From Actinomycetota bacterium (GTDB lineage: Bacteria > Actinomycetota > Thermoleophilia > Solirubrobacterales > 70-9): DNA of 64,000 bases. Made by a program: the position numbers and the translations under genes. Shown piece by piece: positions 5,834 through 33,868 of this stretch; positions within the stretch are counted from its first letter, which is position 1, and each line of letters starts with the position of its first letter. The stretch lies in the NCBI GenBank assembly GCA_047519745.1, contig JAPVSJ010000109.1:6326-70325 (forward strand), read 5' to 3'. Below the pieces are notes generated by a model. That model had not been told where the DNA came from. It saw nothing but the letters and a program-made list of their open reading frames with translations, and searched no databases.

Positions 5834-6777
5834 CGCGGGGAACGAGCAGCGTTATCGAGCAGGGCGAAGAACATCCCGCGATGGTCGCGGCGCTGGTTGT
5901 AGCGCCAGGCATACTCGTCCAGGTAGGACTGAAGCCACTTCTGCGACACCTTCTTGTAGGTGCCACGCATTCCCGTCTTGAGGTTGCCGAAGAAGCCCTC
6001 GATCGTGTTCGTGTGGATGTCGCCGTGGACGTAGACGCCCGCCGAGTGGTTGATGGTGCTGTGGCCTGCGTACTCGCGGCCAAGCGGCCGGTAGGAGCGC
6101 CAGTCGTCCGTGAAGATGATCGAGTTCGGGTTGACGTTCGCCCGCACGGCTCCACTCAGCGGCTCGCCTCGGCGAGACTTGATCACGCGCAGCTTGACCC
6201 GCCCGCCGCGCTCGACCATGCCGAGTACGGAGACCTGGCGCTCGCGCCAGTTAGCGGCTTCTTTTTTGGTCATTCGCGGCCCGCGTGGGCGACCGTGGAC
6301 GCCGGTCTCGTCAACCTCGACCTTGCCCTTCAACGGTTTGGCGTCGTCTTTCATCAGCTCGTTGCGGATCTTGTTGAACATGCGCCAGGCGGTCTTGTAG
6401 TGGACGCCCAGCTCGCGCTCTAGCTGTTTGGCGGATATGCCGCATCGCGTGCTGGCCATGAGGTACATGGCGTAGAACCAAAGCTGAAGCGAGGTTGAGG
6501 ACTTGTGGAAGATCGTGCCGGCCGTGGGATGGACGTGGTGCCCGCAGCCCGTGCAGGTCCACGACTGCCGCCCCTGCTTGGTCGCGTAGCGCTTGAAGAC
6601 GCGCTCAGAGCCGCACTTGGGGCAATAGGCGTGTTCGCCGTCCGGGGAGTGCCGGGTCCGCCACAGATGCTCCAGGCAGGCGGCGTCGTCGGGGAACTGC
6701 CGCTGGAACTCGGTCAGCGAATACTCGGAGGTCGAGGACTTCGCTCGCTTCGGTTCGTGGCGGTTTGCCGGTGGCAT
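5830..6777 (-). CDS. IS1595-family (ISXO2-like) DDE transposase
   Basis: N-terminal Zn-ribbon CPKCGS...CTGCGHH, then VEVDETGVHG..., IFTDDWRSY..., HSTINHS...HTNTIEGFFGNLKTGMRGTYKKVSQKWLQSYLDEYAWRYNQR. This is the characteristic IS1595 DDE-domain layout. Confidence 0.9.
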   Translation of the reverse strand: MPPANRHEPKRAKSSTSEYSLTEFQRQFPDDAACLEHLWRTRHSPDGEHAYCPKCGSERVFKRYATKQGRQSWTCTGCGHHVHPTAGTIFHKSSTSLQLWFYAMYLMASTRCGISAKQLERELGVHYKTAWRMFNKIRNELMKDDAKPLKGKVEVDETGVHGRPRGPRMTKKEAANWRERQVSVLGMVERGGRVKLRVIKSRRGEPLSGAVRANVNPNSIIFTDDWRSYRPLGREYAGHSTINHSAGVYVHGDIHTNTIEGFFGNLKTGMRGTYKKVSQKWLQSYLDEYAWRYNQRRDHRGMFFALLDNAARSPR

Positions 6778-15869: not shown

Positions 15870-16975
15870 TTCTGCGACCGCCGCAGCGATTCCATCACCA
15901 GCTCAACCGCATGCGGGGCCGCGGTCCGCCCGGGATCGTCGCTGGGCGGCTGGACATCCGGGTGGAAGGCGACGGCGACCGCCAAGGGGCCGCTGGCCAG
16001 ATCGACCACCGCGAACTGGCCGGCCAGAAAGTCACCGTCCAGGGAGCCTCCCCAGCCCGCCTTGTAAGCAGGGTTCAGCCCGGCGAAGGCCTCTCCCGCG
16101 CCCCAGTCGAGCGGGGCCGTCAGTTCGCCCGGCGCAACCTCGCGACTCACCGCTTTGGGAAGGCGCATCTCGGCGAGGACTCGATTCGAAATCGCCTTTC
16201 CGTAGACCCCGGCGGCAAGCGCCCGGGCGAAGCGAACCGCGTCGCCGATTCGCCATTCCGAGGTGCCAAGCAGCACTCCCGGCGCGAGCGGGTCGGCGAT
16301 TTCATGCTGGCTTTCCAGGTATTCGAGGCAGCTCGATTCGGGGGGCTCGACTTCCTCGCTGACCTTGGCCCGGCCCCCGGCGGCACGCAGCACTTCCGCA
16401 ACCGCCCGCCGAGCCCCCGCCGGACCAGCCCCAGTCGCCTGCTGAAGTTCGAGCACCACGCGGCGCTGCCGACAGTTCTCCGAACGGGTGATCGCCCCTT
16501 CCAGCGCGCTCTGCACCTCCGGCGTCAGGGTGTTCCCGGGCACCCCACCCCAACCCTCGGCGCGCAGGAGGCCGACCATGACGACGGCCTTGCTCATGCT
16601 CCACATCCGCATCCAACGCTTGCCGCCGTCTGGCCGGGAGGTAACGATCACGGGGTCTCGCCAGCTGGTGAACGTCGCCGCCGCCTCGACCGAGCCCCCA
16701 AGCGCGGCGGCCTGCTTGACGCCGCGCCTCAGCGCCGCAGCGATCTCAGGGCGATCGCTCTCCGGCGCTTTCCTGAGCGAGGTCGTTACGGCAGCGCCGA
16801 GCACAACGAGCCTCATGTCATGGCTCTGGCTGGCCGCGATCAGGCACATGACCACGGCGATGAGCGCGGTCATGGAGGCAGCGGCGATGCGCCGCTGCCT
16901 CCTGAGCCGCGTCGAGGCTCGGCGCGACCTCGTCAACAGGTCGTCCCAAGCAGCTCGTCGTAGCGCGGTTTCCAA
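15866..16975 (-). CDS. membrane-anchored serine hydrolase / class A beta-lactamase-fold protein
   Basis: N-terminal TM helix MTALIAVVMCLIAA, SxxK (WSMSKAVVMVGLL), SxN (RSENC) and KxG (YKAGWGG) motifs in the canonical order. The start may be a later in-frame codon. Confidence 0.65.
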   Translation of the reverse strand: METALRRAAWDDLLTRSRRASTRLRRQRRIAAASMTALIAVVMCLIAASQSHDMRLVVLGAAVTTSLRKAPESDRPEIAAALRRGVKQAAALGGSVEAAATFTSWRDPVIVTSRPDGGKRWMRMWSMSKAVVMVGLLRAEGWGGVPGNTLTPEVQSALEGAITRSENCRQRRVVLELQQATGAGPAGARRAVAEVLRAAGGRAKVSEEVEPPESSCLEYLESQHEIADPLAPGVLLGTSEWRIGDAVRFARALAAGVYGKAISNRVLAEMRLPKAVSREVAPGELTAPLDWGAGEAFAGLNPAYKAGWGGSLDGDFLAGQFAVVDLASGPLAVAVAFHPDVQPPSDDPGRTAAPHAVELVMESLRRSQK

Positions 16976-19200
16976 GCGCGTTCGCGCGCCCTGGTGGTCG
17001 AGTAGCCGGGGTCATAGCGCCAGATGCCACGTTCGTATTTGGCCCAGGTGAGCCCTGCCCATTCGGTGCACGACGCGCTCGGGTCATACCAGCGCATGCC
17101 CCGCACGTCGACCCGCGCAACGCCATTCGCTTCGAGCTTGTCGATCGCGACCCTCATGCCGTGCGGTTCGAGGTAGGGGGTGAGCGTCGCCTGCGCTCGG
17201 CGCCATTTTCCGAAGCCCCCTTCGCGCTGCGCCTGTCGTTGCTTGCGCTTGCTCAACAAGCGCCAGGCGCGGTTGAATTCGCTGTTGACGACCGCACGGT
17301 GGTAGCCGTAGAGGACCTGGCGTATCTGGCGGGCCATCTGTTCCTTGGAGATGAGCGGGAAGCCCCTGTGGTCGACGGTCGCTTCCGCTTCGGGTTCCGT
17401 TTCGGGCGCTTCTTCTTCGACGAATGATTCCGCCGCCTGTTCGGCTTCCGAGAAGGACGTGGCCGACCCCGAGGCGGAGGCCCCGCCCGCGGAGGTGGAC
17501 CGCGCCAATTGTGCGATCCCGACCGCGACGACGGCCAAGACGGCGATGACGGCCAACGAGGACGCGCCGACTCGCCATGCCCAGCCACCCTGGCCGATCG
17601 GTGTGAAGGTCGCCGCATTGGCGCCAGCCAGGCGCTGGGCGGTCCGTGACGGCTCGAAGGGACGCTGGGCAGGGACGACGCCGCGCCGCGAGAGCAACCA
17701 GAGCAGCGGCTCAGTCGCGCCCCTAGGCTCGAACGCGCTCTTGTCGTCCGCCTCCGGGACACGGCCGAGAGCGCTGCAGGCGAACCACCTGACGTTCCCG
17801 AATTCACCCTCGACGGCACGCACGAAGTTGCCGGCGCCATTGGCCTCGAGCCAGGCACGCGGCGCCTTCTCACCCGCGCTCGCGCGCAGGTTCTCGATCT
17901 CGGCGTCGATGCCGAAGGCGTCGGTCTTGCCGATCGTCACTGCGATCGGCACGTCCTTGGGATCGACGCCACCCTCGACCAGCGCGGCGAGCATCCGCTC
18001 CAGGACACGCATCGGCTCCTCTGGCGAGGGGCGGACCGCTTCGCGGGACTCGCTCAGCTCGCTCGCGTGTTCCTCGGCCACGCGGGGAATCGAGAGTGGG
18101 TCGACGAGGAGAACCAGGCCCGAGGGAACCTCGAGGAAGCGCAGGTTCCTGACCTGGTCGGAGGCCTGGTAGTTCTCGCCGGCGACGTCGTAGGCGTAGA
18201 GCACGCGGGAGCGGTCGTCACCCTGAACCTCGGTGACGAGTGCCGGGTTGCCCGAGATCTGCGTCTTCTGTGGCAACCTGCCCTGGCGCAGACCGCCAAC
18301 AACCTCGCTATAGGCGGTGCTGCTCTCGTCGAGGACGTCGACGGCGAGACGCTTTTCCGCCGCCATCTTCTCGAACTCGAGCATCGCGGCCGCGAGATAG
18401 GTGGTCTTGCCCGCGCTCGGCCCCGCGACCAGGGCGATGCGCAGCGTCTCGGCGAAGCCGATCAGGCCCGACATCGGGTGGCCCGAAGGACAGCGCTGCG
18501 GTACCCGCTGGCGGCCGCCGAGGACGGTCGTCGGCAGGGCGACCAACTCGCAGGAGCATTCTCGCCGGAATATTCCCCAGCGCCCGGGGACGAGATTGCG
18601 ATGCTCGGCGCTGCAGTTGGGACAGACGTATACGGGCAGCGGGAAGCGTTCGTGGTCCTGGGGGCACTCGTAGGCGGTCCGGCGCAGGCGGCGACGGACC
18701 GCCTCGGCCGCGCGCAGGATCCAGACCATCAACCAGGCGCCGGCGATCAGGATCCCGGCGACGAGCATCACCGGCGCCACGACGAGCAGACCAAGCCCAG
18801 CGCCGACGAACGGCGCGATGTAGCCCCCCGCGAGGACACCCCAGGCAAGCGGCGTCGTCACCCCGTCGTTGTATTTGTCGGCAAAGCGGGTGCAGGTCGC
18901 GCGGAAGGTGAGCATCTCGGCCCACGCTTTTTTCAGGGCCGCTTCAAGATCGCTCCTCAGCTGGCCGAGGATGTAGAGCTGGAAGGCCGGCTCCGGCGGC
19001 AGCGGCTGGCGCCGGGATTTACCGCGCGAGCTCACTGAGCCGCCGAGGTCAGAGGCAAAGGCGAGGCTGCCCTGGCCGAGGCCGATCAGGGCCCCGCCCG
19101 CTGCCCCCAGGGCAAAGACCGCGATTGCGGCCGCGATGAGAATCATCACCACGATGGCTCCAATGGCCAGCGCCAGCATGCCTCCGATCAGGTCGTCCAT
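16933..19200 (-). CDS. membrane-embedded zinc-ribbon P-loop GTPase with a C-terminal extracytoplasmic domain (paralogue of 24301-25473)
   Basis: Hydrophobic segments near residues 8-48, 118-163 and 541-566. Cys clusters ECPQDH..CPNC and CSCE..RCPSGH. G1 VAGPSAGKTT, G3 YDVAGE, LVLLVDP, G4 GKTD. Confidence 0.75.
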   Translation of the reverse strand: MDDLIGGMLALAIGAIVVMILIAAAIAVFALGAAGGALIGLGQGSLAFASDLGGSVSSRGKSRRQPLPPEPAFQLYILGQLRSDLEAALKKAWAEMLTFRATCTRFADKYNDGVTTPLAWGVLAGGYIAPFVGAGLGLLVVAPVMLVAGILIAGAWLMVWILRAAEAVRRRLRRTAYECPQDHERFPLPVYVCPNCSAEHRNLVPGRWGIFRRECSCELVALPTTVLGGRQRVPQRCPSGHPMSGLIGFAETLRIALVAGPSAGKTTYLAAAMLEFEKMAAEKRLAVDVLDESSTAYSEVVGGLRQGRLPQKTQISGNPALVTEVQGDDRSRVLYAYDVAGENYQASDQVRNLRFLEVPSGLVLLVDPLSIPRVAEEHASELSESREAVRPSPEEPMRVLERMLAALVEGGVDPKDVPIAVTIGKTDAFGIDAEIENLRASAGEKAPRAWLEANGAGNFVRAVEGEFGNVRWFACSALGRVPEADDKSAFEPRGATEPLLWLLSRRGVVPAQRPFEPSRTAQRLAGANAATFTPIGQGGWAWRVGASSLAVIAVLAVVAVGIAQLARSTSAGGASASGSATSFSEAEQAAESFVEEEAPETEPEAEATVDHRGFPLISKEQMARQIRQVLYGYHRAVVNSEFNRAWRLLSKRKQRQAQREGGFGKWRRAQATLTPYLEPHGMRVAIDKLEANGVARVDVRGMRWYDPSASCTEWAGLTWAKYERGIWRYDPGYSTTRARERAWKPRYDELLGTTC

Positions 19201-19886
19201 CTGTACCTCGCTTCTTTCGTGGGTTTTCTCTCGATGTCGAAGGCCGGGAAGAAGCGCGGCACGACCAGCGAGCCGATGCCGATCGCCACCGTCGCGGCGA
19301 TCGCCAGCCGCGCCTCCGGGCTGCCGAGGTCATGCAGGCTGCCGCCGAGCGCGGTGTAGACGAAGCAGCGGGGCGCGAAGCCAACCGCCGTGCCGATCGC
19401 GATACGCGAGAGGGGGATCGCGGTGAGGCCGCAGGCATAGCTGGTGTAGGTGAATGGGAGGCCGGGGACGAGCCGGGCGAAGATGACGCTGCGCAGGGGG
19501 CGGGCCTCCAGCCAGCGGCCGAGACGGGCGACCCGATCGCCGAGTACCGCGGCCGCGCCGGGGGAGCTGACACCGCGAACGATCAGCACGGCCAGCAACG
19601 CCCCGACGGTCAACCCGGCCAGTGCGACCGGGAAGCCGAGCGCGAGGCCGAGCACGTAACCGGCCGCGGCGGCGAGCAGGCCGGCGGAGACCAGCGCCGG
19701 CGTCAGCACCGCCACCGCAGCGAAGGTCAGGGGCAGCGCCGCCCCGCTTTCGTCGGCGAAGTCGGCCACGCTGTGCGCGTTCAGCGCCAGCCCGATCAGG
19801 ACGCCGACGGCGACCACCGTGACGACGACGAAGAGGATGAAGAGCCGCGTTCGCTCGGCCCGTGGCGAACGGCGCTCGGCGTTCAT
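19188..19886 (-). CDS. TVP38/TMEM64 (DedA superfamily, SNARE-associated) membrane protein
   Basis: ARLVPGLPFTYTSYACGLTAIPLSRIAIGTAVGFAPRCFVYTALG is the family core motif. 4-nt overlap upstream and 13-nt overlap downstream. Confidence 0.8.
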   Translation of the reverse strand: MNAERRSPRAERTRLFILFVVVTVVAVGVLIGLALNAHSVADFADESGAALPLTFAAVAVLTPALVSAGLLAAAAGYVLGLALGFPVALAGLTVGALLAVLIVRGVSSPGAAAVLGDRVARLGRWLEARPLRSVIFARLVPGLPFTYTSYACGLTAIPLSRIAIGTAVGFAPRCFVYTALGGSLHDLGSPEARLAIAATVAIGIGSLVVPRFFPAFDIERKPTKEARYRWTT

Positions 19887-21892: not shown

Positions 21893-24304
21893 CTAGCGCT
21901 CCTCCCCGCGGCGGAACACACCTCGTACCGCCCGCGAAACCGCGCGGCGAGGAGGGTGATCCTCGAGCCAGCGCTCCCAGGCCCGGCCGCGGCGCTCGCC
22001 CAGAATCACGCCGACCTCGTCCAGCTCGGCGAGTGGAAGGTCGCGGGTCGCCCGTGGGAGCGCGACCTCGAGCAACGGCTCGCGACAGCTCTTCGGCGCC
22101 TGCCAGAGAACAAACACGTCGGCGACGAGCTTCGAGGGGTCGAGGCTCTTCGCGATGCGGCGCGCCAGCGCGTCACCCAGCTCCAGGGGCCAGTCCCGAC
22201 CCATGCCACGCAGCAGGACCTCGATCCCCTTCGCGTAGTCGTCCTCGTCCAAGGACTGGATGGCCACCCGAGCCGCGAGGTCGCTCAATTCCCCATCGCG
22301 GGCGGGAGACAGCGACTCTCCTCCTCGCAGCAGGCGATCCGCCGCCACGGCCCAATCGCGAAAGGCCTGGCGTTCCGGCGCCGCCTCGAAGAGCAGGCTC
22401 CAGGCGAGGTACTCGGTGTCGCCGCGCACCGCGCCCGGGCCGTTGCGCAAGACGCCGAACAGCCGCCTCGCCTCCTCGCCCTGCCGAAACGACAGCTCCG
22501 CGAGGCAGTCGAGGGCCCGTTCGTAGTCGAGGTGAGGAGCCTCGCGCCCAGCGGCATCCCAGGCAGTGAGCAGCTCGGCGTTCTCCTCCGCCCCCACCGG
22601 GCCGTCGTCGCCGTAGAGGCCGCGGATCATCGCCTCGTGGCCACGGGTCTCCGCCCGACCCGCGAGGGCCGCCACGGCGGCGCCACGATCGGCGCCGGCG
22701 AAGTCCGCTCGCAGCAACTCCCACGCCGCGATCGCCTCGAAATCGCCCGCCTCGGACGCGTTCGCGCGCACCGCCTCCCGTGCCAGCGGCTGGTCCGCCG
22801 CTCGCCTGAGGAGCTCTAGGCCTTGACCGGAGCCCGCCGCCTCGGCCAGCTTCAGCGCGACTCCTTCGATGACCCGCGCGTTTCCCGACGCGCCGATCAC
22901 CGCGTATGACGCCTGCACGGCCGGGTCGGCGAAGGAGCGAGCGATCGGCTCGACCAGCTCCTTGTCGAGGGCGGTGTTGCAGCCAACCAGGCCCAGCCGC
23001 AGGCCCGCCGTGAGGTAGGGGCCAAAACGCTCGCCCCCGTCCGCCCCCGAGAGCAGACCAAGCCACTTGACGAGCACCGCGGCCGAGGGCGCCGTCGGGC
23101 TGGCCGAGTCCACTTCCGGCAGCGGCGGGGCATCCGGGCCGAGAGACGGGAGAAGCCGCTCGAGCGCGACGTCGACGAGAGCCGTCGCGTCAGGGTCCTC
23201 GCTTCCCCTTGCCGCCGCGAAGAGCTGGGCCCACTCCTCAGACTCCCCCTCCACGCTTCCGCCCTCCGGCAGCTCCGCCGCCATCTCGGCGAGCAGACCA
23301 GCGCCAGTCGTCGCGAGGCAACCGCGCAGAGCCGCGATCGCGTGCGGCAACTCGGCGGGCAGAACAAGCTCGAGCCTGCGCGCCGCCACCGCCAGCTCGG
23401 CGCCCGCGCTGGCGAGGTCGAGACCAGCGGGCACGTCGCGAATCGCGGCCGACACGGCCTCCGCACCGTCACCCGCCAGCGCCGCCAGGGCCCTGCCGTA
23501 AAGCGAGAGCTCAGAGACCGGAGGGGGCGTGGCGGCGTCGACGACGGTGACCGCGCTGCCCAGCTCGTAGGGCGGGAAATCCGTGTCGCAGGCCGGCGTC
23601 GTGACGCACATGCGCACCGACTCGGCGACCCGCGGCCTACCCTCGAAAGTGGCGAAGGTCAGCGCCGTAGCCCGGTCGGGTGGCAGCGTGAAGCTGGCCC
23701 AGGCGACCCAGGCCGCCGCGAGCTCCGCCTCGGCCTCGACGATCACGACCCGCGGGCCGCCGAGGACGGCGCTGAGGGCGGCGTCCGAGACGGCCCCGAG
23801 CGCCGGGGCACCGCGGGAAAGAAGTCGGCCGAGCACCTGATCGAGGTCCACCGGCCCGGGCTCGACCCCCTCGAGAACCGGGAGATCGGTCCGCGTCGAC
23901 TCCGCAGTGGACCAGTGGGGCGCCTCCCAGAGCTCGATCGGCAAGAGGCCACCGAACGGGTCCGGTTCCTCGCCGGCGATGATGTGGGAGAAGTAGTTGC
24001 CGAAGCGCCCGCTGTCGGGCTCCCCTTCCGCGCCGCGAAACTCGCGCCCGACGTAGACGGTCCGCGAGACGACCGGGCCAATGCCCTCCACCGGCAGGTA
24101 GCGCAGGTCGACCGGTAGCGCCGCGATCTCCTCGGGATTGGGTTCCGCCGGCGCATCGGGCGGCGGGCGGTAGCCGGAGTGGTCGGCGGCTAGCCGAGTC
24201 AGCTGCTCAGGCGCGAGCCCGCCGCTCGCGGCGTTGAACTGAAAGCCGGCATGGCCCGAAAGGCCGTTGCGGCAGGAGGTGTGGAACGCCTGGCGGCAGC
24301 TCAT
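21893..24304 (-). CDS. large helical protein with a GAP1-like (GTPase-associated protein) N-terminus
   Basis: N-terminus MSCRQAFHTSCRNGLSGHAGFQFNAASGGL... The rest is Ala/Leu-rich and helical. Flanked by the GTPase gene (4-nt overlap) and the Hsp70-vWA gene (abutting). The family name is from memory, not from a search. Confidence 0.55.
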   Translation of the reverse strand: MSCRQAFHTSCRNGLSGHAGFQFNAASGGLAPEQLTRLAADHSGYRPPPDAPAEPNPEEIAALPVDLRYLPVEGIGPVVSRTVYVGREFRGAEGEPDSGRFGNYFSHIIAGEEPDPFGGLLPIELWEAPHWSTAESTRTDLPVLEGVEPGPVDLDQVLGRLLSRGAPALGAVSDAALSAVLGGPRVVIVEAEAELAAAWVAWASFTLPPDRATALTFATFEGRPRVAESVRMCVTTPACDTDFPPYELGSAVTVVDAATPPPVSELSLYGRALAALAGDGAEAVSAAIRDVPAGLDLASAGAELAVAARRLELVLPAELPHAIAALRGCLATTGAGLLAEMAAELPEGGSVEGESEEWAQLFAAARGSEDPDATALVDVALERLLPSLGPDAPPLPEVDSASPTAPSAAVLVKWLGLLSGADGGERFGPYLTAGLRLGLVGCNTALDKELVEPIARSFADPAVQASYAVIGASGNARVIEGVALKLAEAAGSGQGLELLRRAADQPLAREAVRANASEAGDFEAIAAWELLRADFAGADRGAAVAALAGRAETRGHEAMIRGLYGDDGPVGAEENAELLTAWDAAGREAPHLDYERALDCLAELSFRQGEEARRLFGVLRNGPGAVRGDTEYLAWSLLFEAAPERQAFRDWAVAADRLLRGGESLSPARDGELSDLAARVAIQSLDEDDYAKGIEVLLRGMGRDWPLELGDALARRIAKSLDPSKLVADVFVLWQAPKSCREPLLEVALPRATRDLPLAELDEVGVILGERRGRAWERWLEDHPPRRAVSRAVRGVFRRGEER

Positions 24305-25475: not shown

Positions 25476-28400
25476 TCAGTCGATCAGGAGCTGGTCGGCC
25501 ATTGGGTCGAAGAGGACGAAGCCGCTCGCCGCGCTCGCCGAGTCGAGGAAGAGCCGCACCGCGAGTGGCCGCGAGAGCCCACGCAGCTCGAGGCTCGAGT
25601 GGCGCGGGCCGTCGCCGCCGAGCCGCGCCAGCACCGCCCCGTCCGCCGCGCTGCGGGGCAGGATCTCCCCCTCGCGCCCGACCAGCACCAGCTCGGGCAG
25701 CCCCCCGTTGGCGGGCTCGGAGACCTCGACCTCGAGGCGCTTCTGCAACATCCCGGCAAGCCGCACCGAGTAGCGCAACTCGGTCTTGTCCTCGGTCCTC
25801 AGAGTCGCTCGGGTGCCCTTGCCGCCGCTGCTGCCATAGGCAACGTCAGCGCCCAGACGAGTCGCCGGGAAGACCGCGACGAACAGCGAGCGCTGGTCAC
25901 CGAGGTCGATCGAGCAGCCGCCGCGATCACGGTACTCCCCCAGCCTGTAGTCGATGGCGTGGGCACTCGCGTCCTCGGGCCCGGCTGGTTGGCGGTCATG
26001 GCGCCAAACGATCCGGGCGAGGGTGATGCCGGCGGGCCAGGTCCAGGTGACCTGAGCCTGGCGACCGTTGGCGACGGCGCGCACGTTCGAGATCTCGGGC
26101 AAGGCCACGTGGCGAACCGCCGCGCCGGCAACCGCGGTCGTGCCAGCGACAGTGACCGCCTGATAGAAGCAGGGGCCCGTTGGCGGTTCGGGGTCGACGG
26201 CGGCCGATCCACTTACCTCAAGCGCCTGGCCCAGCCCGGACAGCTCGGCAAGCTCGAGCTCAGCCCCTGGCTTCAGCTCCGGATCCTCAGCGCACCTGAA
26301 GATCGAGAGGGTGCCGTTCTCCGGCGGCTCGAAGCCGAGAGCGACGCCAGTCGACCGCGCGAGCACGATCAGCTCACCGAGCGGCTTGGGTCGTTCAACC
26401 GGCTGGGCGAACGCCGTCAGGCCCGGGGTTCGGACCGCCTCCCCACCCGGCACCGGGTATTCGACCCGCACGAAATAGGTGTAGCGACGGCCGTTGACGA
26501 CGAAGCGATCGGTGACGCCCGCGGCATCGGGGTCGAGCGTGATCTCGGAACGATCCGACTCGTCGCGGCGGCGGACCTCGACCCGGCCCGTCTCTGCACG
26601 GGCCGTCCAGGACAGGCGCACCTCGCCATCACCCTCGCTGACGGCGAGGTCTCCCACCTCGTGCGCCGCGACCGCCGGTGCCGAGGTCGCAATAGTGGAG
26701 CGTGCTCCGCCCCGGACGGCCTCGACTGAGTAACGGACGACCGCCCCAGGTGCGGCCCCGTCGTCCTCGATCTCGAGCCCGTCGGTTTCCCCGACGAGCA
26801 CCCTGCCCTTACCGCGGATGTCCCGGAAGACCACGTAGGCAACGCCTCTGGTCAGCGATGGCGCCCAGCCGATCATCATCGCCGTCCCGCCCGCGACCGC
26901 CTCCACGGCGCTGGGCGGCTCGAGCGGCAGCTTCTCCAGCTCGCGCTCCGCCTCGGCACAATCGGCCGCGAAGTTGAGTGCCTCCAGCAGCAACTGCTCC
27001 CTCGACGCTCCCTGGAGCCCGAGCGCCTTCGCCAGTGCCACCTCGGCTTCACCCACCCGCTCGCGCGAGGCTTCCAGCGCCCCTGCAGGCAGTTCCCCGG
27101 TAGGCCCGGGGAAATCTTTGGCGGCCTTCTCGAGCTCCCCGAGCAGCCGGCGCGCGGCATAGTGGCGACGCTCGCCTCGTGCCTCATCGACTTCCGCCCA
27201 GGCGCGTTTGGCGCCTTCCACGGCTGCCGTAACGCGGCGTGCCGCGGCCTGCAGCTCGGCGTTCGAGCTGCCGAGGATCTGCGTCGCCTCCTCGAGCTCG
27301 GACCGCGCCCGGCCCACCCTCCCCTCGTCGACCAACTCGGGCAGCCGAGAGACGGTGCGGATCGCGGCCGCGTGCCGGTGGAGGTCGGCGCCGCAGGTGG
27401 CGCAACGCGCCGCCGTCGCGTCGCTGCGCTGACCGCAGCCGTTCGGGCACTGGACGAAGAGCGCCGTGGCGCAGCGCTCGCAGCGCTCGTGACCAGCGTC
27501 GCGCGGATGGGGGTGATTGCACAGCGGGCAGGCGACGAAATCGACCGCCGCTCCGGTGCGAAGGCTGGCGCCGTGTTCGCGGGCGAGCTCGGCCACCACG
27601 CGCTGCGCCAGCTCGGTCGTGAGGCCCAGCTCCAGCCCCCCGCGGAGAAGCTGCTCCGCCTCCAGCTCGTCGATCTCGCCATCGTCGGCGACGGCCTTCA
27701 TCGCCCGCAGGTCGAGTGCTTCGCGAACGTCCAGCATCAGCCCGTGCACGTAGGCACGGGGATCGTTATCGAGCAGATGGATCTTGGCCAGTGAGAGCAC
27801 CGACTCCCAGTTCGCCTTGGTATTGCCGTGGGGCCGAACACGGTTTGCCTGAACCTGCTCCGCGTACCGGGCGTCGATCGCAGCTCGGTCAGCGGTGATC
27901 TCCAAGCCAAAGGCGTGGAAGAGGCTGAGGCCGGCCCGAGGTTCGGCAAGGTCACGGGCGAGGTTGGTGAGAGCGCTGGCCACCAGCGCCCGCTGGCCCT
28001 GATCGAGGATCTCCGGCTCAGCGGCGACCGGTGCGGCGTCGAGTTTCGCCTGCACCTCGGGGCCGGCGATTCCGGTGCTGGCGGCCATCCTCTCCAGGCG
28101 CGCGCGCTGGGTCGGGTCGAGTCCGCCCGCCGAGCGGACCGTCTGCGCCAACAGCTCGTCCCACTCCTTCACGGCCCGCGCCGACGCCTCGGCGCGCTCG
28201 TGCATGCGCTGGCGCATCTCGTCCGCAAGCCGCTCCCGCTCGCGGGCATCGCCGAGGGTCAGCTTTGCCTCGGGGTGCTTTTCGACCAGGTTCCTGATCG
28301 CCGCCCCGTACCGGGGGTGCTCTGATTTCTTGTCCCAGTAGCGCTTGACCTCTTCGAGGCGAGCCTCGATTGCCGCTTCGTCGGAATCGTCGACATCAAT

Positions 28401-28493
28401 CAGGTACCGGTCGAACAGGTTCGGCAGCTCAGCCGAATCGATGCACGGGGCGAGCACGTCGCCCAGGTACGACTTTGGGTCGAACGGTCGCAC
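25476..28493 (-). CDS. 1005-aa multidomain protein: two J-domain-like helical modules, a Cys-rich zinc-ribbon cluster, a coiled coil and C-terminal beta-sandwich repeats
   Basis: NLFDRYLIDVDDSDEAAIEARLEEVKRYWDKKSEHPRYG... and SLFHAFGLEITADRAAIDARYAEQVQANRVRPHGN...IHLLDNDPRAYV. CPLCNHPH..CERC..CPNGC..CATC. Repeats such as GEVRLSWTARAETGRVEVRRRD and AQVTWTWPAGITLARIVWRHD. Confidence 0.6.
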   Translation of the reverse strand: MRPFDPKSYLGDVLAPCIDSAELPNLFDRYLIDVDDSDEAAIEARLEEVKRYWDKKSEHPRYGAAIRNLVEKHPEAKLTLGDARERERLADEMRQRMHERAEASARAVKEWDELLAQTVRSAGGLDPTQRARLERMAASTGIAGPEVQAKLDAAPVAAEPEILDQGQRALVASALTNLARDLAEPRAGLSLFHAFGLEITADRAAIDARYAEQVQANRVRPHGNTKANWESVLSLAKIHLLDNDPRAYVHGLMLDVREALDLRAMKAVADDGEIDELEAEQLLRGGLELGLTTELAQRVVAELAREHGASLRTGAAVDFVACPLCNHPHPRDAGHERCERCATALFVQCPNGCGQRSDATAARCATCGADLHRHAAAIRTVSRLPELVDEGRVGRARSELEEATQILGSSNAELQAAARRVTAAVEGAKRAWAEVDEARGERRHYAARRLLGELEKAAKDFPGPTGELPAGALEASRERVGEAEVALAKALGLQGASREQLLLEALNFAADCAEAERELEKLPLEPPSAVEAVAGGTAMMIGWAPSLTRGVAYVVFRDIRGKGRVLVGETDGLEIEDDGAAPGAVVRYSVEAVRGGARSTIATSAPAVAAHEVGDLAVSEGDGEVRLSWTARAETGRVEVRRRDESDRSEITLDPDAAGVTDRFVVNGRRYTYFVRVEYPVPGGEAVRTPGLTAFAQPVERPKPLGELIVLARSTGVALGFEPPENGTLSIFRCAEDPELKPGAELELAELSGLGQALEVSGSAAVDPEPPTGPCFYQAVTVAGTTAVAGAAVRHVALPEISNVRAVANGRQAQVTWTWPAGITLARIVWRHDRQPAGPEDASAHAIDYRLGEYRDRGGCSIDLGDQRSLFVAVFPATRLGADVAYGSSGGKGTRATLRTEDKTELRYSVRLAGMLQKRLEVEVSEPANGGLPELVLVGREGEILPRSAADGAVLARLGGDGPRHSSLELRGLSRPLAVRLFLDSASAASGFVLFDPMADQLLID

Positions 28494-28500
28494 TCGGTCC

Positions 28501-30195
28501 TCAGGTGCGGCTCACCGAGGCGACCCGCTCCGCCGCGGCCGCAACCTTCTCCTGCGACATCACCGCACCCTCGGCTTCGACCTCAAACTCGAGGTTCGAG
28601 CCGCTGCTGTGTGACGCCTTGACCTTCAACACGCCGTTTTCGGCCATCGCGAGGGTCACCTGGATCGGCGCCCCCACCGGGTCGTTCCCGGGCAGCGCGA
28701 TCACCCCATGTCCGATGTTTTCGTTGTGGGCGAGCTCTTCGGAGAGCTCGGAGCCCGACTGTTGCCAGAGCTCGATGCGCACGGTCTGCTGATTGGGAAT
28801 CGTGGTGCCGTACGTCTCCGGGTCCGGATCGCCCGGCAACGGGGTGTTCGGCTTGATCACGTGATCGATCCAGAAGTCCGCGGGATCGGTCGAGCTGGGA
28901 TCGTGGCCGTCACGTAGGAGCTTTACGCCGAAGCCCCGGGAGCAAACGTTCGTCACCTCGGTGTCCTTGATCCGCTGCAAGGTGCTGAGCTCGAGTCCCA
29001 TCTCCTCGGCGACCTTCTTCTCGATCTCGGCGCTCGAGGACGGCACGCCGTCGGATTCCGCCTGCGCGGTCTCTTCGCTCAGCTTCGCCCTCAGCTCCGC
29101 CTGAAAGCCGAGCAGCGCCGCGCCCTTCGCCACCGCCTGGTTCGCGTCCTCCAGCTCCGGCACCCAGCCGGGGAAGGCCTCCGCCAGGCGCTCCGCTACC
29201 GCAGGCATGAAAGACGACCCACCGACCAGGAGAACCCGATCGATCTCGGGAGCACCGAGCTCCTTTGCTTTCTCCACGGTTTCCCGCGTGAACTCGATCG
29301 TCTGGTCGAGCAGCTCGCGGGTCGCCTGCTCGAACTCGTCCCTGGTCAGCTCAACGTTGTCGCGCGCTTCCCCCGAGACCACGATTTGGGTCAGCGAGTC
29401 GCGCAGGCTCAGCCCCCGCTTCGCCTCCTCCGCGGCGAGCCGCAGCTCGGCCGTCGCGATGTCGTCGTCGAGGGGATCGGGGGCCTCGGGGTGCGCTTCG
29501 GAGAATTTCCGCGCCAGCAGGTTGACCACACGTTCGTCCCACTGAGCGCCGCCGAGGCGCGCGTTTCCCCCCGTCGCGACAACGCGGATGTGACTCCCGG
29601 ACTCGACTGGTTCGAGCCGGATCACGGTGACGTCAAAGGTCCCGCCACCGAGGTCGTAGACGAGAACCGTTTCGTCGACATCAGCCCCCTGGGCGAAGCC
29701 GTAGGACATCGCTGCGGCGGTCGGCTCGTTGACCACGTCGACCACATCGAGCCCGGCGATCTTCCCCGCCGCGATCGTCGCCTCGCGCTCGACGATGCCG
29801 AAATAGGCGGGCACCGTGATCACGACTTTCTCGACTTTCTCGCGCGTCTGCAGCTCCGCGTCCTCGCACAGCGCCTTGAGAATGTGAGCGGATACCTCGG
29901 GCGCGCTCCACTCCTCCCCATGTGCCTCGAAGCGCCAGTCGGACTCACCCATGTGACGCTTGACCAGCTCCGACACATTTTCCGGGTCGAGCAGCATCTG
30001 GCGCTTTGCCTCCTTGCCGACCTGGATGTCGTCGGAACCGACGAACATCACGACCGAGGGGGTGACAGGGTCACCGTCGCGGTTGTTGATCACTATCGGC
30101 CGGCCGAACTCGTCAACCCGCGAGATGCACGAGTACGTGGTGCCGAGATCAATGCCCCAAACCGTCGTCGAGTTTTCACCGTTGCCGTTCCCCAT
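28501..30195 (-). CDS. Hsp70-family chaperone (DnaK paralogue, short C-terminus without an obvious helical lid)
   Basis: GIDLGTTYS, VITVPAYFGIVEREATIAAGKIAGLDVVDVVNEPTAAA, LVYDLGGGTFDVTVI and VLLVGGSSFMPAV. 564 aa in total. Confidence 0.9.
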   Translation of the reverse strand: MGNGNGENSTTVWGIDLGTTYSCISRVDEFGRPIVINNRDGDPVTPSVVMFVGSDDIQVGKEAKRQMLLDPENVSELVKRHMGESDWRFEAHGEEWSAPEVSAHILKALCEDAELQTREKVEKVVITVPAYFGIVEREATIAAGKIAGLDVVDVVNEPTAAAMSYGFAQGADVDETVLVYDLGGGTFDVTVIRLEPVESGSHIRVVATGGNARLGGAQWDERVVNLLARKFSEAHPEAPDPLDDDIATAELRLAAEEAKRGLSLRDSLTQIVVSGEARDNVELTRDEFEQATRELLDQTIEFTRETVEKAKELGAPEIDRVLLVGGSSFMPAVAERLAEAFPGWVPELEDANQAVAKGAALLGFQAELRAKLSEETAQAESDGVPSSSAEIEKKVAEEMGLELSTLQRIKDTEVTNVCSRGFGVKLLRDGHDPSSTDPADFWIDHVIKPNTPLPGDPDPETYGTTIPNQQTVRIELWQQSGSELSEELAHNENIGHGVIALPGNDPVGAPIQVTLAMAENGVLKVKASHSSGSNLEFEVEAEGAVMSQEKVAAAAERVASVSRT

Positions 30196-30882: not shown

Positions 30883-31024
30883 GGCGTCTCCCCAACCGGG
30901 GTCGCGACAATACCTGATCTGTACCTCACTTGATAATTAGAGAGACTAAATTGGGTACCGAAGATTCTCCATAGTTCTAAGAGTATGGGTAGGCAAGGGC
31001 CAACCGGCGTCGAAGTAGGCGCGG
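30883..31024. promoter_or_regulatory. AT-rich divergent intergenic region (promoter region for the GrpE-led operon and the ion-channel gene)
   Basis: Marked local GC drop (cacttgataattagagagactaaattgggtaccgaagattctccatagttctaagagtatggg) between divergent starts. No specific -35/-10 pair could be assigned with confidence. Confidence 0.35.
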
Positions 31025-31831
31025 ATGAGCGCTGAGGTTGCCGAGAAGCTCGTGCCCTACGGGCCGGGGATGGACGCGCGCAGCACGCGCGTCGCCGAAC
31101 GGCTCAACACGCCGATGCTGTTCGCGGCGGCGCTGACGATCCCAGCCGTGGCGATCAACGAGTCCCACCCCGGGGGGTGGCTGCTGAACGTCGCCCACGC
31201 GCTCAACTGGGTCATCTGGCTCGCCTTCCTCACCGAGCTGGTGGTGATGCTGGCGGTCGTGCCGGAGCGGTGGACCTGGCTCAGGCACCACCCGCTCGAC
31301 CTGATCATCGTCGTCTTCACGCCGCCGGTGCTGCCTGCCGGCCTGCAGAGCCTGCGGGTCCTGCGCCTGCTCCGCCTGCTGCGGCTGCTGCGCCTGGCAC
31401 AGCTCTCGCGTGAGGCCTTCTCGCTGCGCGGCCTCCACTACGCGGCGCTGCTCGCCGTGCTTACCGCGGTCGCCGGCGGCGCCCTCTTCGTCGGCTTCGA
31501 GAAGCACAGCCAGCACCTGACCGCCTGGGACGGGATCTACTGGGCGGTCACCTCGATGACCACGCTCGGCTCGAACATCTACCCGATGACGACCGGCGGC
31601 GAGATCGTCGGCGTCGTCGTCGTGATCGTCGGCATCTCCTTCGTCGCGCTGCTGACCGGCGCGATCGCCCAGCGCTTCCTCGGCCCCGAGATCGCCGAGG
31701 TGGAGGCTGAGCTGGAGGAGGAGCATGCGTCGGCCGAGGCGATAGCGCTGCGTGAGCTGCGCAACGTCCGCGAGCAGCTCGAGGCGCTCGAGGTCGCCGT
31801 CGAGCGCATGGTCGACGAGCGCGCCGCCTGA
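31025..31831 (+). CDS. voltage-sensor-containing ion transport protein with a non-canonical pore filter
   Basis: S4-like LRVLRLLRLLRLLRLAQL. Pore region YWAVTSMTTLGSNIYPMT. C-terminal coiled coil. Confidence 0.75.
   Translation: MSAEVAEKLVPYGPGMDARSTRVAERLNTPMLFAAALTIPAVAINESHPGGWLLNVAHALNWVIWLAFLTELVVMLAVVPERWTWLRHHPLDLIIVVFTPPVLPAGLQSLRVLRLLRLLRLLRLAQLSREAFSLRGLHYAALLAVLTAVAGGALFVGFEKHSQHLTAWDGIYWAVTSMTTLGSNIYPMTTGGEIVGVVVVIVGISFVALLTGAIAQRFLGPEIAEVEAELEEEHASAEAIALRELRNVREQLEALEVAVERMVDERAA

Positions 31832-31885: not shown

Positions 31886-33868
<1,983 letters not shown>

Follow-up and report, generated by a model that had tools for sequence, protein, structure and literature searches.

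The described systems closest to the locus reported here are the GAP1-N2-type DO-GTPase systems, whose Hsp70/GrpE theme was outlined, in silico only, in section 29 of Kaur, Burroughs, Iyer & Aravind (eLife 2020; PMC7159879). There, an FNIII-repeat protein, typically fused to DnaJ or TPR, is found alongside Hsp70 and GrpE genes, and the systems are predicted to act in conflicts of multicellular bacteria, with defence against invaders as the proposed role (PMC7159879). No experimental follow-up of these systems was found in the literature, and the supplement of the same paper holds no DnaJ or GrpE architecture strings. Here, we analysed a 64-kb window from an Actinomycetota bacterium (64,000 nucleotides, nt; positions 6,326 to 70,325 of contig JAPVSJ010000109.1, assembly GCA_047519745.1, renumbered from 1), in which a gene for a protein of 1005 amino acids (aa) directly follows an Hsp70 gene and encodes, at its N-terminus, two J-domain-like modules without the His-Pro-Asp (HPD) tripeptide.

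The window shares with the published systems a protein carrying both GAP1-N2 and GAP1-M, DO-GTPases (one of them next to GAP1), an Hsp70, a GrpE, a second Hsp70 fused to a von Willebrand factor A (vWA) domain and, together with Hsp70 and GrpE, a fibronectin type III (FN3) protein with a J-related N-terminus, all in an actinobacterial host. Judged by its sequence and neighbours, the 1005-aa protein is the predicted FN3-repeat component of a GAP1-N2-type DO-GTPase system with the Hsp70/GrpE theme, an architecture class that has already been described in silico. The two descriptions differ in detail. The fused domain is called plainly 'DnaJ' by Kaur et al., whereas here it occurs in tandem, both copies lack HPD and both are missed by the Pfam DnaJ model. 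The main text of that paper is silent on a putative double zinc ribbon, on a fixed architecture of five FN3 domains and on the loss, in the partner Hsp70s, of the arginine equivalent to R167 of Escherichia coli DnaK; the R167 loss appears new relative to the published description. The FN3 domains of our protein also differ in not being conspicuously fast-evolving. The 1005-aa protein is the least understood core part of DO-GTPase/GAP1-N2 systems, and a domain map (Table 1) together with point mutants makes the 2020 prediction testable, the tandem HPD-less J pair and the matching R167 loss in the partner Hsp70s being the added details that allow this. We consider it probable that the protein is a dedicated adaptor, linking the target that it binds to the non-canonical Hsp70s of its own operon.

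The initial annotation of this gene had proposed two J-domain-like modules without HPD, quoting LFDRYLIDVDD...HPRYG...LTLGDARERERL for the first and LFHAFGLE...RVRPHGN...LLDNDPRAYV for the second; these strings were located at aa 26-89 (with H59-P60-R61 inside) and aa 191-249 (with R220-P221-H222 inside), respectively. The proposal was upheld by profile comparison with shuffle controls and by the predicted helix layout. Module alignments sliced from a 79-sequence alignment of diverse relatives were compared, using hhalign, with a reference alignment built from ten textbook J domains (10/10 match Pfam DnaJ, with E-values down to 1.6e-31). Module 1 aligned to this reference with a probability of 94.8% (E = 4.9e-8, score 39.3) and module 2 with 94.7% (E = 6.1e-8, score 39.0), each over 64 columns and in register from helix I through helix IV. 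Column-shuffled controls (100 per module) reached at most 1.4% and a score of 13.5 for module 1, and 2.2% and 14.3 for module 2, while reversed alignments scored 10.6 and 7.1. The two modules also aligned to each other with a probability of 92.7%.

Secondary structure assigned by DSSP to AlphaFold2 (AF2) models shows, in both modules, the J-domain succession of helix I, helix II, loop, helix III and helix IV, which is the layout that the annotation had expected. In module 1, helix I spans aa 26-29, helix II aa 39-55, the loop (which holds HPR) aa 56-62 and helix III aa 63-81, followed by a long helix IV (aa 83-122); the corresponding elements of module 2 are aa 191-194, 203-218, 219-223, 224-242 and 245-271. 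The whole-protein model, built from a 27-sequence alignment, had a mean predicted local distance difference test score (pLDDT) of 82, and aa 1-320 modelled separately had a pLDDT of 88.9.

A Foldseek search of PDB with the N-terminal model agreed with the proposed fold in part. J domains were the only compact matches with low root-mean-square deviation (rmsd), namely 4wb7_A (probability 0.85, rmsd 3.3 Å), 6rzy_A (probability 0.77, target-normalised template modelling score 0.66), 2dmx (0.69), 2och (0.66) and the J protein HscB, but none of them was statistically significant (best E = 2.7), and the search output does not state which module was matched. This lack of significance counts against a J assignment and against the adaptor reading, as do several sequence searches: the Pfam DnaJ model left the window protein and six homologues without a match even at E ≤ 10 and, at E ≤ 0.01, matched 0/48 distant relatives, profile searches of both modules against PDB sequences retrieved no J domain, and hhalign runs with close 24-sequence alignments stayed near noise (0.4% for module 1 and 9.4% for module 2), although this shallow result has been superseded by the 79-sequence alignments.

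Taken together, these negatives (no Pfam DnaJ match, no PDB profile match and Foldseek E-values above 1) would suit a chance resemblance, in which the N-terminal helices belong to an unrelated fold that happens to mimic the J layout. We regard this as very improbable, because two modules independently reach about 95% in register over 64 columns where shuffled and reversed controls do not exceed 2.2%, because J domains alone supply the compact Foldseek matches, and because near-canonical J strings can be read by eye in distant members of the family: (R/P)NYYLLLGLDP ... W(S/N)(K/R)..NHP(T/K)(K/R)G ... (V/I)(L/M).DP..R in module 1 and SLYDFLGL ... R..YD..L in module 2. Mainly on the strength of the profile comparison, we take both modules to be divergent J domains; the structural evidence agrees with this assignment but is weak.

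The resemblance between the two modules extends beyond the J-like segments. The N-terminal halves (aa 18-160 and 186-318) aligned to each other at 98.1% (E = 1.1e-13), which shows the N-terminus to be a tandem duplication, each unit being a degenerate J domain followed by a long helix and then a small helical hairpin. The two hairpins likewise matched each other (94.4%, E = 8.4e-8), and each follows its module with the pattern G-(L/I)-x3-(E/Q)-x3-L-x6-G-(L/I). This pattern may recall TerB-like domain repeats such as the N-terminal domain of DjlA.

Across the 79 relatives, conservation in module 1 falls on W53 (76 sequences), P60 (54), K/R61 (49) and, in helix III-IV, D82 (63) and R86 (76), and in module 2 on L191 (78/79) and Y248 (77/79), with Y/F192, F194 and L195 also kept. 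Position 59 has H in 23 relatives and N in 20, and position 61 has K (32), R (17) or T (11), together 60/79, giving a module-1 family signature of W53 followed, 5-6 residues on, by H/N59, P60 and K/R/T61. An HPD tripeptide was present within the first 340 residues of just 3/195 family proteins, and inside the module-1 loop only in relative P0187, which reads NHPDK at this position. The occurrence of NHPDK at the same place suggests that HP[R/K/T] of module 1 is probably a remnant of HPD in which the aspartate has been replaced by another residue (the basic R in the window protein). The positional equivalence of H59-P60-R61 is uncertain, as hhalign sets DnaJ H33-P34-D35 opposite D54-K55-K56. 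Of the annotation's two loop readings, the HPR of module 1 is backed by P0187, and the 'RPH' of module 2 is no conserved motif: the window protein reads RPHGN in that loop, where the 79 relatives have no conserved motif.

The protein shares with canonical DnaJ/Hsp40 (PF00226) the four-helix layout with its helix II/III hairpin, the helix I motif (Y/F)xxLG(L/V), the helix III-IV motif LxDPxxRxxY and a gene position beside Hsp70 and GrpE. Unlike canonical members, it has no HPD, no Pfam DnaJ match and no conserved basic face on helix II. It also differs from class A DnaJ, having neither a G/F region (the G+F fraction is ≤ 0.10 throughout aa 1-450) nor any zinc-finger motif of the CxxCxGxG type.

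In the canonical complex, D35 of DnaJ contacts R167 (through a hydrogen bond) and Q378 of DnaK, while basic residues of helix II contact E206, D211 and E217 (PMC8215388). The Hsp70 side of this interface was read from alignments to an E. coli DnaK reference, whose landmark residues (K70, R167, E171, T199, E206, D211, E217, Q378, L391, P419 and D477) agree with the numbering of PMC8215388. The 564-aa partner Hsp70 matches PDB structures over the nucleotide-binding domain (NBD, aa 12-362) and weakly over the β-part of the substrate-binding domain (SBD-β, aa 445-551). About 55 inserted residues separate its NBD from a linker-like VTNV, its SBD-β is divergent and it has no α-helical lid. The catalytic K70, E171 and T199 are kept, and the receptor residues are changed: R167 to D153 (nt 29737-29739), E206 to R193, E217 to R204 and Q378 to L. 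The Hsp70-vWA protein has G in place of R167, H in place of N170 and IRDV as its linker. Arginine was found at the R167 position in 0/21 readable system-linked Hsp70s, which instead have D (10), G (3), H (2) or A (2), with single cases of Y, Q, K and H among further paralogues.

On these residues, the HPD-R167 contact is lost on both sides, in the 1005-aa protein and in its Hsp70. Every J protein tested depends on HPD for its function (review PMC8215388); with R167 missing from the partner Hsp70s as well, the 1005-aa protein is unlikely to stimulate Hsp70 ATPase activity in the canonical way, and stimulation of any kind would call for a rewired interface. The joint absence of the HPD aspartate and of its receptor (R167, Q378) suggests that docking would be either non-stimulatory or mediated by a co-evolved interface. 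In the first case, the protein might dock without stimulating ATP hydrolysis, as a tether or regulator in the manner of HPD-less J-like proteins; in the second, the co-evolved interface could insulate the operon's Hsp70 from housekeeping DnaJ/DnaK. HPD is regarded as the universal, indispensable signature of Hsp70 co-chaperones, but the present family, widespread in bacteria, retains the J fold together with a private Hsp70 and GrpE and has dropped both HPD and its receptor. Should the two partners still communicate, they would offer a natural orthogonal J-Hsp70 interface, of use for studying how Hsp70 specificity evolves and for building insulated chaperone circuits; if they no longer do, the family would be a bacterial counterpart of eukaryotic J-like regulators.

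A rival reading is an active but rewired co-chaperone, in which module 1 would stimulate the private Hsp70 through a co-evolved, charge-inverted interface. HP[R/K] would pair through its basic residue with D153 of Hsp70, E43, E47 and E48 would face R193 and R204, and the pair would be orthogonal to housekeeping DnaK/DnaJ. Aspartate does occupy the R167 position of the adjacent Hsp70, both here and at nine further loci of the window's lineage (extending to Frankia, Pseudofrankia and the Ter-linked L012), position 61 of module 1 is always R or K within that lineage, and the window Hsp70 has arginine at both the E206 and E217 positions opposite a module-1 helix II that has glutamate where DnaJ has R22, K26 and R27. 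The retention of GrpE implies that a nucleotide cycle matters, and P0187 shows that the HP[x] site can hold a literal HPD. This apparent charge inversion in the window lineage (K/R61 with D167, and acidic helix II with R206 and R217) is suggestive. However, D167 and K/R61 are both invariant in the lineage, so that there is no true covariation signal, and the pattern fails elsewhere, with H167 alongside K in L013, G167 without an HP motif in L014, Y167 in L016 and G167 in L017. The acidity of helix II is limited to the Solirubrobacterales clade, and hhalign, as noted above, places HPD away from H59-P60-R61. A strict family-wide swap of HPD/R167 for HP(K/R)/D167 was rejected, as it holds in the actinobacterial lineage only, and we consider an actively stimulating, rewired co-chaperone rather unlikely.

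Gene order links the 1005-aa protein to Hsp70 more consistently than to any other neighbour. Among the window and related loci, a gene of this type stood directly behind an Hsp70 gene in 15/16 readable gene copies (window, L001-L004, L006, L008-L010, L012-L015, L017 and one of two copies in L011). The direct Hsp70 neighbour was present in eight of ten genome loci, as far out as Frankia and Pseudofrankia (about 29% identity), the other two, L005 and L007, being fragments at contig ends; it was also present in 6/7 readable metagenome loci. In L016, an Hsp70-vWA gene and a 399-aa gene are inserted before the adaptor gene within an otherwise identical gene set. L014 and L017 repeat the order GrpE, Hsp70, adaptor, GTPase, GAP1, whereas L012 (7080-13051) and L013 (7496-13066) have the GrpE-Hsp70-adaptor triad without GTPase or GAP1. 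The L012 triad adjoins TerD, ATP-grasp, PRTase and PELOTA 'Ter-dependent' genes, and that of L013 adjoins WD40, NACHT and FGE-sulfatase genes, two more Hsp70 genes and a second GrpE. The triad thus has the look of a portable module, and its persistence without GTPase and GAP1 indicates that Hsp70 is the most constant neighbour of the adaptor gene. In a distant branch (L011 and L015), the upstream gene is Hsp70-vWA in place of GrpE-Hsp70. L011 (665-19206; GCA_037147235.1) also contains two paralogous adaptor/GTPase/GAP1 cassettes in tandem, with three GAP1-N2 genes altogether.

These loci bear on the possibility that the modules are a pseudo-J scaffold that no longer contacts Hsp70 and serves instead as a structural or oligomerisation unit, or as a binder of GAP1 or the GTPase, with the Hsp70s acting elsewhere. 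The combined loss of HPD, of the basic helix II face and of Hsp70 R167 and Q378 would be in keeping with such a role, as would the tandem arrangement of the modules in one chain, where they could pack together after the example of J-like/J heterodimers, and the second adaptor copy of L011, which follows a DO-GTPase and not an Hsp70. The near-constant Hsp70 adjacency described above argues against it, and so does the survival of the triad without GTPase/GAP1, which points to Hsp70 and not the GTPase pair as the obligate partner. Moreover, the module-1 surface formed by W53, P60, K/R61, D82 and R86 is strongly conserved in the 79 relatives even at 20-30% identity. A scaffold detached from Hsp70 seems to us, on balance, quite unlikely.

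In the adaptor reading that we prefer, the tandem degenerate J domains would dock the protein on the co-encoded Hsp70 or Hsp70s, the FN3 array, perhaps with the zinc ribbon and helical region, would hold a client or the GTPase/GAP1 switch, and GrpE would reset and recycle Hsp70. The functional proposal of the initial annotation, in which a non-standard J partner would complete a chaperone cycle private to the operon, remains plausible in these terms. Besides the negative searches given above, the adaptor reading has to contend with the general requirement for HPD, with the glutamates E43, E47 and E48 at the positions aligned with DnaJ R22, K26 and R27, with the lack of conservation of a basic helix II face among the 79 relatives, and with the fact that gene order is the whole of the evidence for a physical interaction with either Hsp70. 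In addition, PADLOC (PADLOC-DB v2) returned 0 matches for the eight operon proteins at E ≤ 0.01 and contains no model for any operon gene. The role of the system as a whole may be defence, as proposed by Kaur et al.; envelope or developmental assembly in filamentous actinobacteria is a possible alternative.

In its most far-reaching form, the proposal would be that the family embodies an HPD-independent coupling of J fold and Hsp70 through a rewired, partly charge-inverted interface, with a chaperone cycle that has its own GrpE, is orthogonal to housekeeping DnaK/DnaJ and loads or remodels FN3-bound targets in a GTPase-gated conflict or assembly machine; we put this forward tentatively and hold it to be doubtful as it stands.

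HPD-less J folds working with a dedicated Hsp70 and a GrpE-type factor have a precedent in mitochondrial Pam16/Tim16, which regulates or tethers and does not stimulate. Pam16 has Pam18, a true J protein, as its partner, whereas the 64-kb window encodes no canonical, HPD-bearing J domain anywhere, and the architectures are unrelated. Among specialised bacterial Hsp70/J pairs, HscA-HscB and HscC-DjlB/DjlC (PMC8215388) similarly combine a private Hsp70 with a dedicated, co-encoded J partner of class C type that has its own client-binding domain. Their J partners keep HPD, whereas here HPD and R167 are both missing and the Hsp70 is lid-less.

The gene itself is well delimited. The open reading frame (ORF) list and translation give a 1005-aa product with a GTG start and a stop codon at 25476-25478, and the start is backed by 27 full-length homologues that all begin at the same MRPFDP... 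position. These homologues (37-92% identity, about 1005 aa) come mostly from Solirubrobacterales metagenome-assembled genomes. An exhaustive HMMER search (E < 1e-30) gave a family of 1314 representatives at 50% identity, a figure that counts in some generic FN3 arrays; many of the distant relatives are full-length (about 1000 aa) at 20-30% identity. Neither a signal peptide nor a transmembrane segment was detected in the protein (maximum Kyte-Doolittle 19-residue mean of 1.49), which places the FN3 array in the cytoplasm. Scans of the protein with Pfam, NCBIfam and PADLOC gave no J-domain match, and its sole NCBIfam match, to a phosphatase model, was dismissed as spurious, having arisen via the zinc ribbon.

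Downstream of the J-like pair, most of the annotated architecture was recovered. The cysteine cluster noted as CPLC / CERC / CPNGC / CATC is present as four pairs (C322/C325, C338/C341, C349/C353 and C364/C367), all eight residues being invariant in the 79 relatives, and its best match is the Pfam Double zinc ribbon (PF12773). This match is sub-threshold in the window protein (E = 0.092, 13.4 bits vs a cutoff of 27.3), and the same model matches 43/48 relatives at E ≤ 0.01 (best E = 2.2e-8); AF2 pLDDT over the region is just 60-75. The 'coiled coil' said to follow was not borne out: aa 373-522 were modelled as a helical-repeat or bundle region of seven helices, 8-29 residues each, and not as one long coiled coil, with pLDDT of about 82-94 in 10-residue blocks from 381 to 520. 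Pfam TPR families score at some point along the chain in 2/48 relatives.

The Ig/FN3-like repeats of the annotation correspond to five confidently modelled β-sandwich domains with approximate limits at aa 523-612, 613-703, 704-800, 801-903 and 904-1005. FN3 arrays headed the Foldseek results for the C-terminal half (1fnf, E = 4.9e-12; 3t1w, E = 4.1e-11), and Pfam fn3 matches 13/48 relatives. Mean pairwise identity was 0.24-0.32 in the FN3 domains vs 0.20-0.31 in the rest of the protein, so that the FN3 domains are not more variable than the remainder. This is a poor fit to a fast-evolving sensor, and a further point to be set against the reading of the protein as target-binding adaptor; the idea of hypervariable FN3 sensor domains is unsupported by per-domain identity, which agrees better with a fixed partner than with an arms-race sensor. 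In precomputed Pfam hits on P0032, P0041, P0164 and others, the FN3 domains are named Fn3_SaeA_2nd to Fn3_SaeA_5th (PF25832-PF25835). If SaeA is a studied member of the family, it would be the closest characterised relative; a candidate source of the name, mBio 2025 (PMC12691689), was rejected because it concerns SaEAS, an unrelated exported alarmone synthetase.

The genes of the operon are arranged in the order GrpE, lid-less Hsp70, 1005-aa protein, DO-GTPase, GAP1-N2, Hsp70-vWA, DedA/VTT and DO-GTPase (Table 1), which includes the 564-aa Hsp70 and the GrpE named in the initial annotation as well as a second, vWA-fused Hsp70 paralogue. From Hsp70 onward, intergenic gaps on the minus strand range from +7 to -43 nt, and genes that overlap by 4 to 13 nt point to a single operon. 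The stop codon of the partner Hsp70 lies 7 nt ahead of the start of the 1005-aa gene, and the 390-aa DO-GTPase gene, directly upstream of GAP1, begins 2 nt past the stop of the 1005-aa gene. The Pfam match of this 390-aa protein falls below the cutoff, and its L014 equivalent scores with Pfam DO-GTPase2.

Table 1. Coordinates of the 1005-aa gene, its predicted domains and the neighbouring genes in the 64-kb window
Feature	Coordinates (nt)	Strand	Basis
Whole gene: J-like x2 / putative double zinc ribbon / helical repeats / FN3 x5	25476..28493	minus	ORF, 27 homologues, AF2
J-like module 1, aa 21-95	28209..28433	minus	AF2 DSSP, hhalign
H59-P60-R61, probable HPD remnant, C-terminal end of II-III loop	28311..28319	minus	Column counts, P0187
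Small helical hairpin 1, aa 123-153, GGLDPTQRARLERMAASTGI...	28035..28127	minus	AF2 helices 127-140, 145-153
J-like module 2, aa 189-262; neither HPD nor a remnant of HP	27708..27929	minus	AF2 DSSP, hhalign
Small helical hairpin 2, aa 272-306, GEIDELEAEQLLRGGLELGLTTELAQRVV...	27576..27680	minus	AF2 helices 276-288, 293-306
Putative double zinc ribbon, aa 317-372	27378..27545	minus	Eight Cys invariant, Pfam DZR
Helical-repeat region, aa 373-522	26928..27377	minus	AF2
Five tandem FN3-like β-sandwich domains, about aa 523-1005	25479..26927	minus	AF2 strands, Foldseek
ORF of 249 aa, no convincing family match	30977-31726	minus	Pfam/NCBIfam scans
GrpE-like nucleotide exchange factor, 210 aa	30250..30882	minus	Pfam GrpE E 5.2e-14, 52.7 bits, cutoff 25.8
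Partner Hsp70, 564 aa	28501..30195	minus	Pfam HSP70 E 2.7e-89
Putative DO-GTPase, 390 aa	24301..25473	minus	Pfam DO-GTPase2 E 5.4e-4, 20.1 bits, below cutoff 27
GAP1, 803 aa, GAP1-N2 + GAP1-M	21893..24304	minus	PF20013 E 2.8e-30, PF20014 E 2.7e-12
Hsp70 paralogue with C-terminal vWA, 669 aa	19883..21892	minus	Pfam HSP70 E 6.6e-93, VWA E 9.3e-16
DedA/VTT membrane protein	19188-19886	minus	VTT_dom PF09335 E 3.2e-18
Larger DO-GTPase, 755 aa	16933..19200	minus	Pfam DO-GTPase2 E 6e-10, 39.6 bits, above cutoff 27
ORF of 369 aa, no convincing family match	15866-16975	minus	Scans
ORF of 208 aa, only weak matches to proline-rich and Cys-rich models	15243-15869	minus	Scans

The DedA/VTT gene overlaps both of its neighbours, which hints at a membrane-proximal function of the system. 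The 369-aa and 208-aa ORFs at the downstream end, which likewise overlap adjacent genes, may be part of the operon. On its upstream side, the same strand carries an acetate-CoA ligase gene (31886-33868, minus; NCBIfam E = 2.3e-292), probably an unrelated housekeeping gene.

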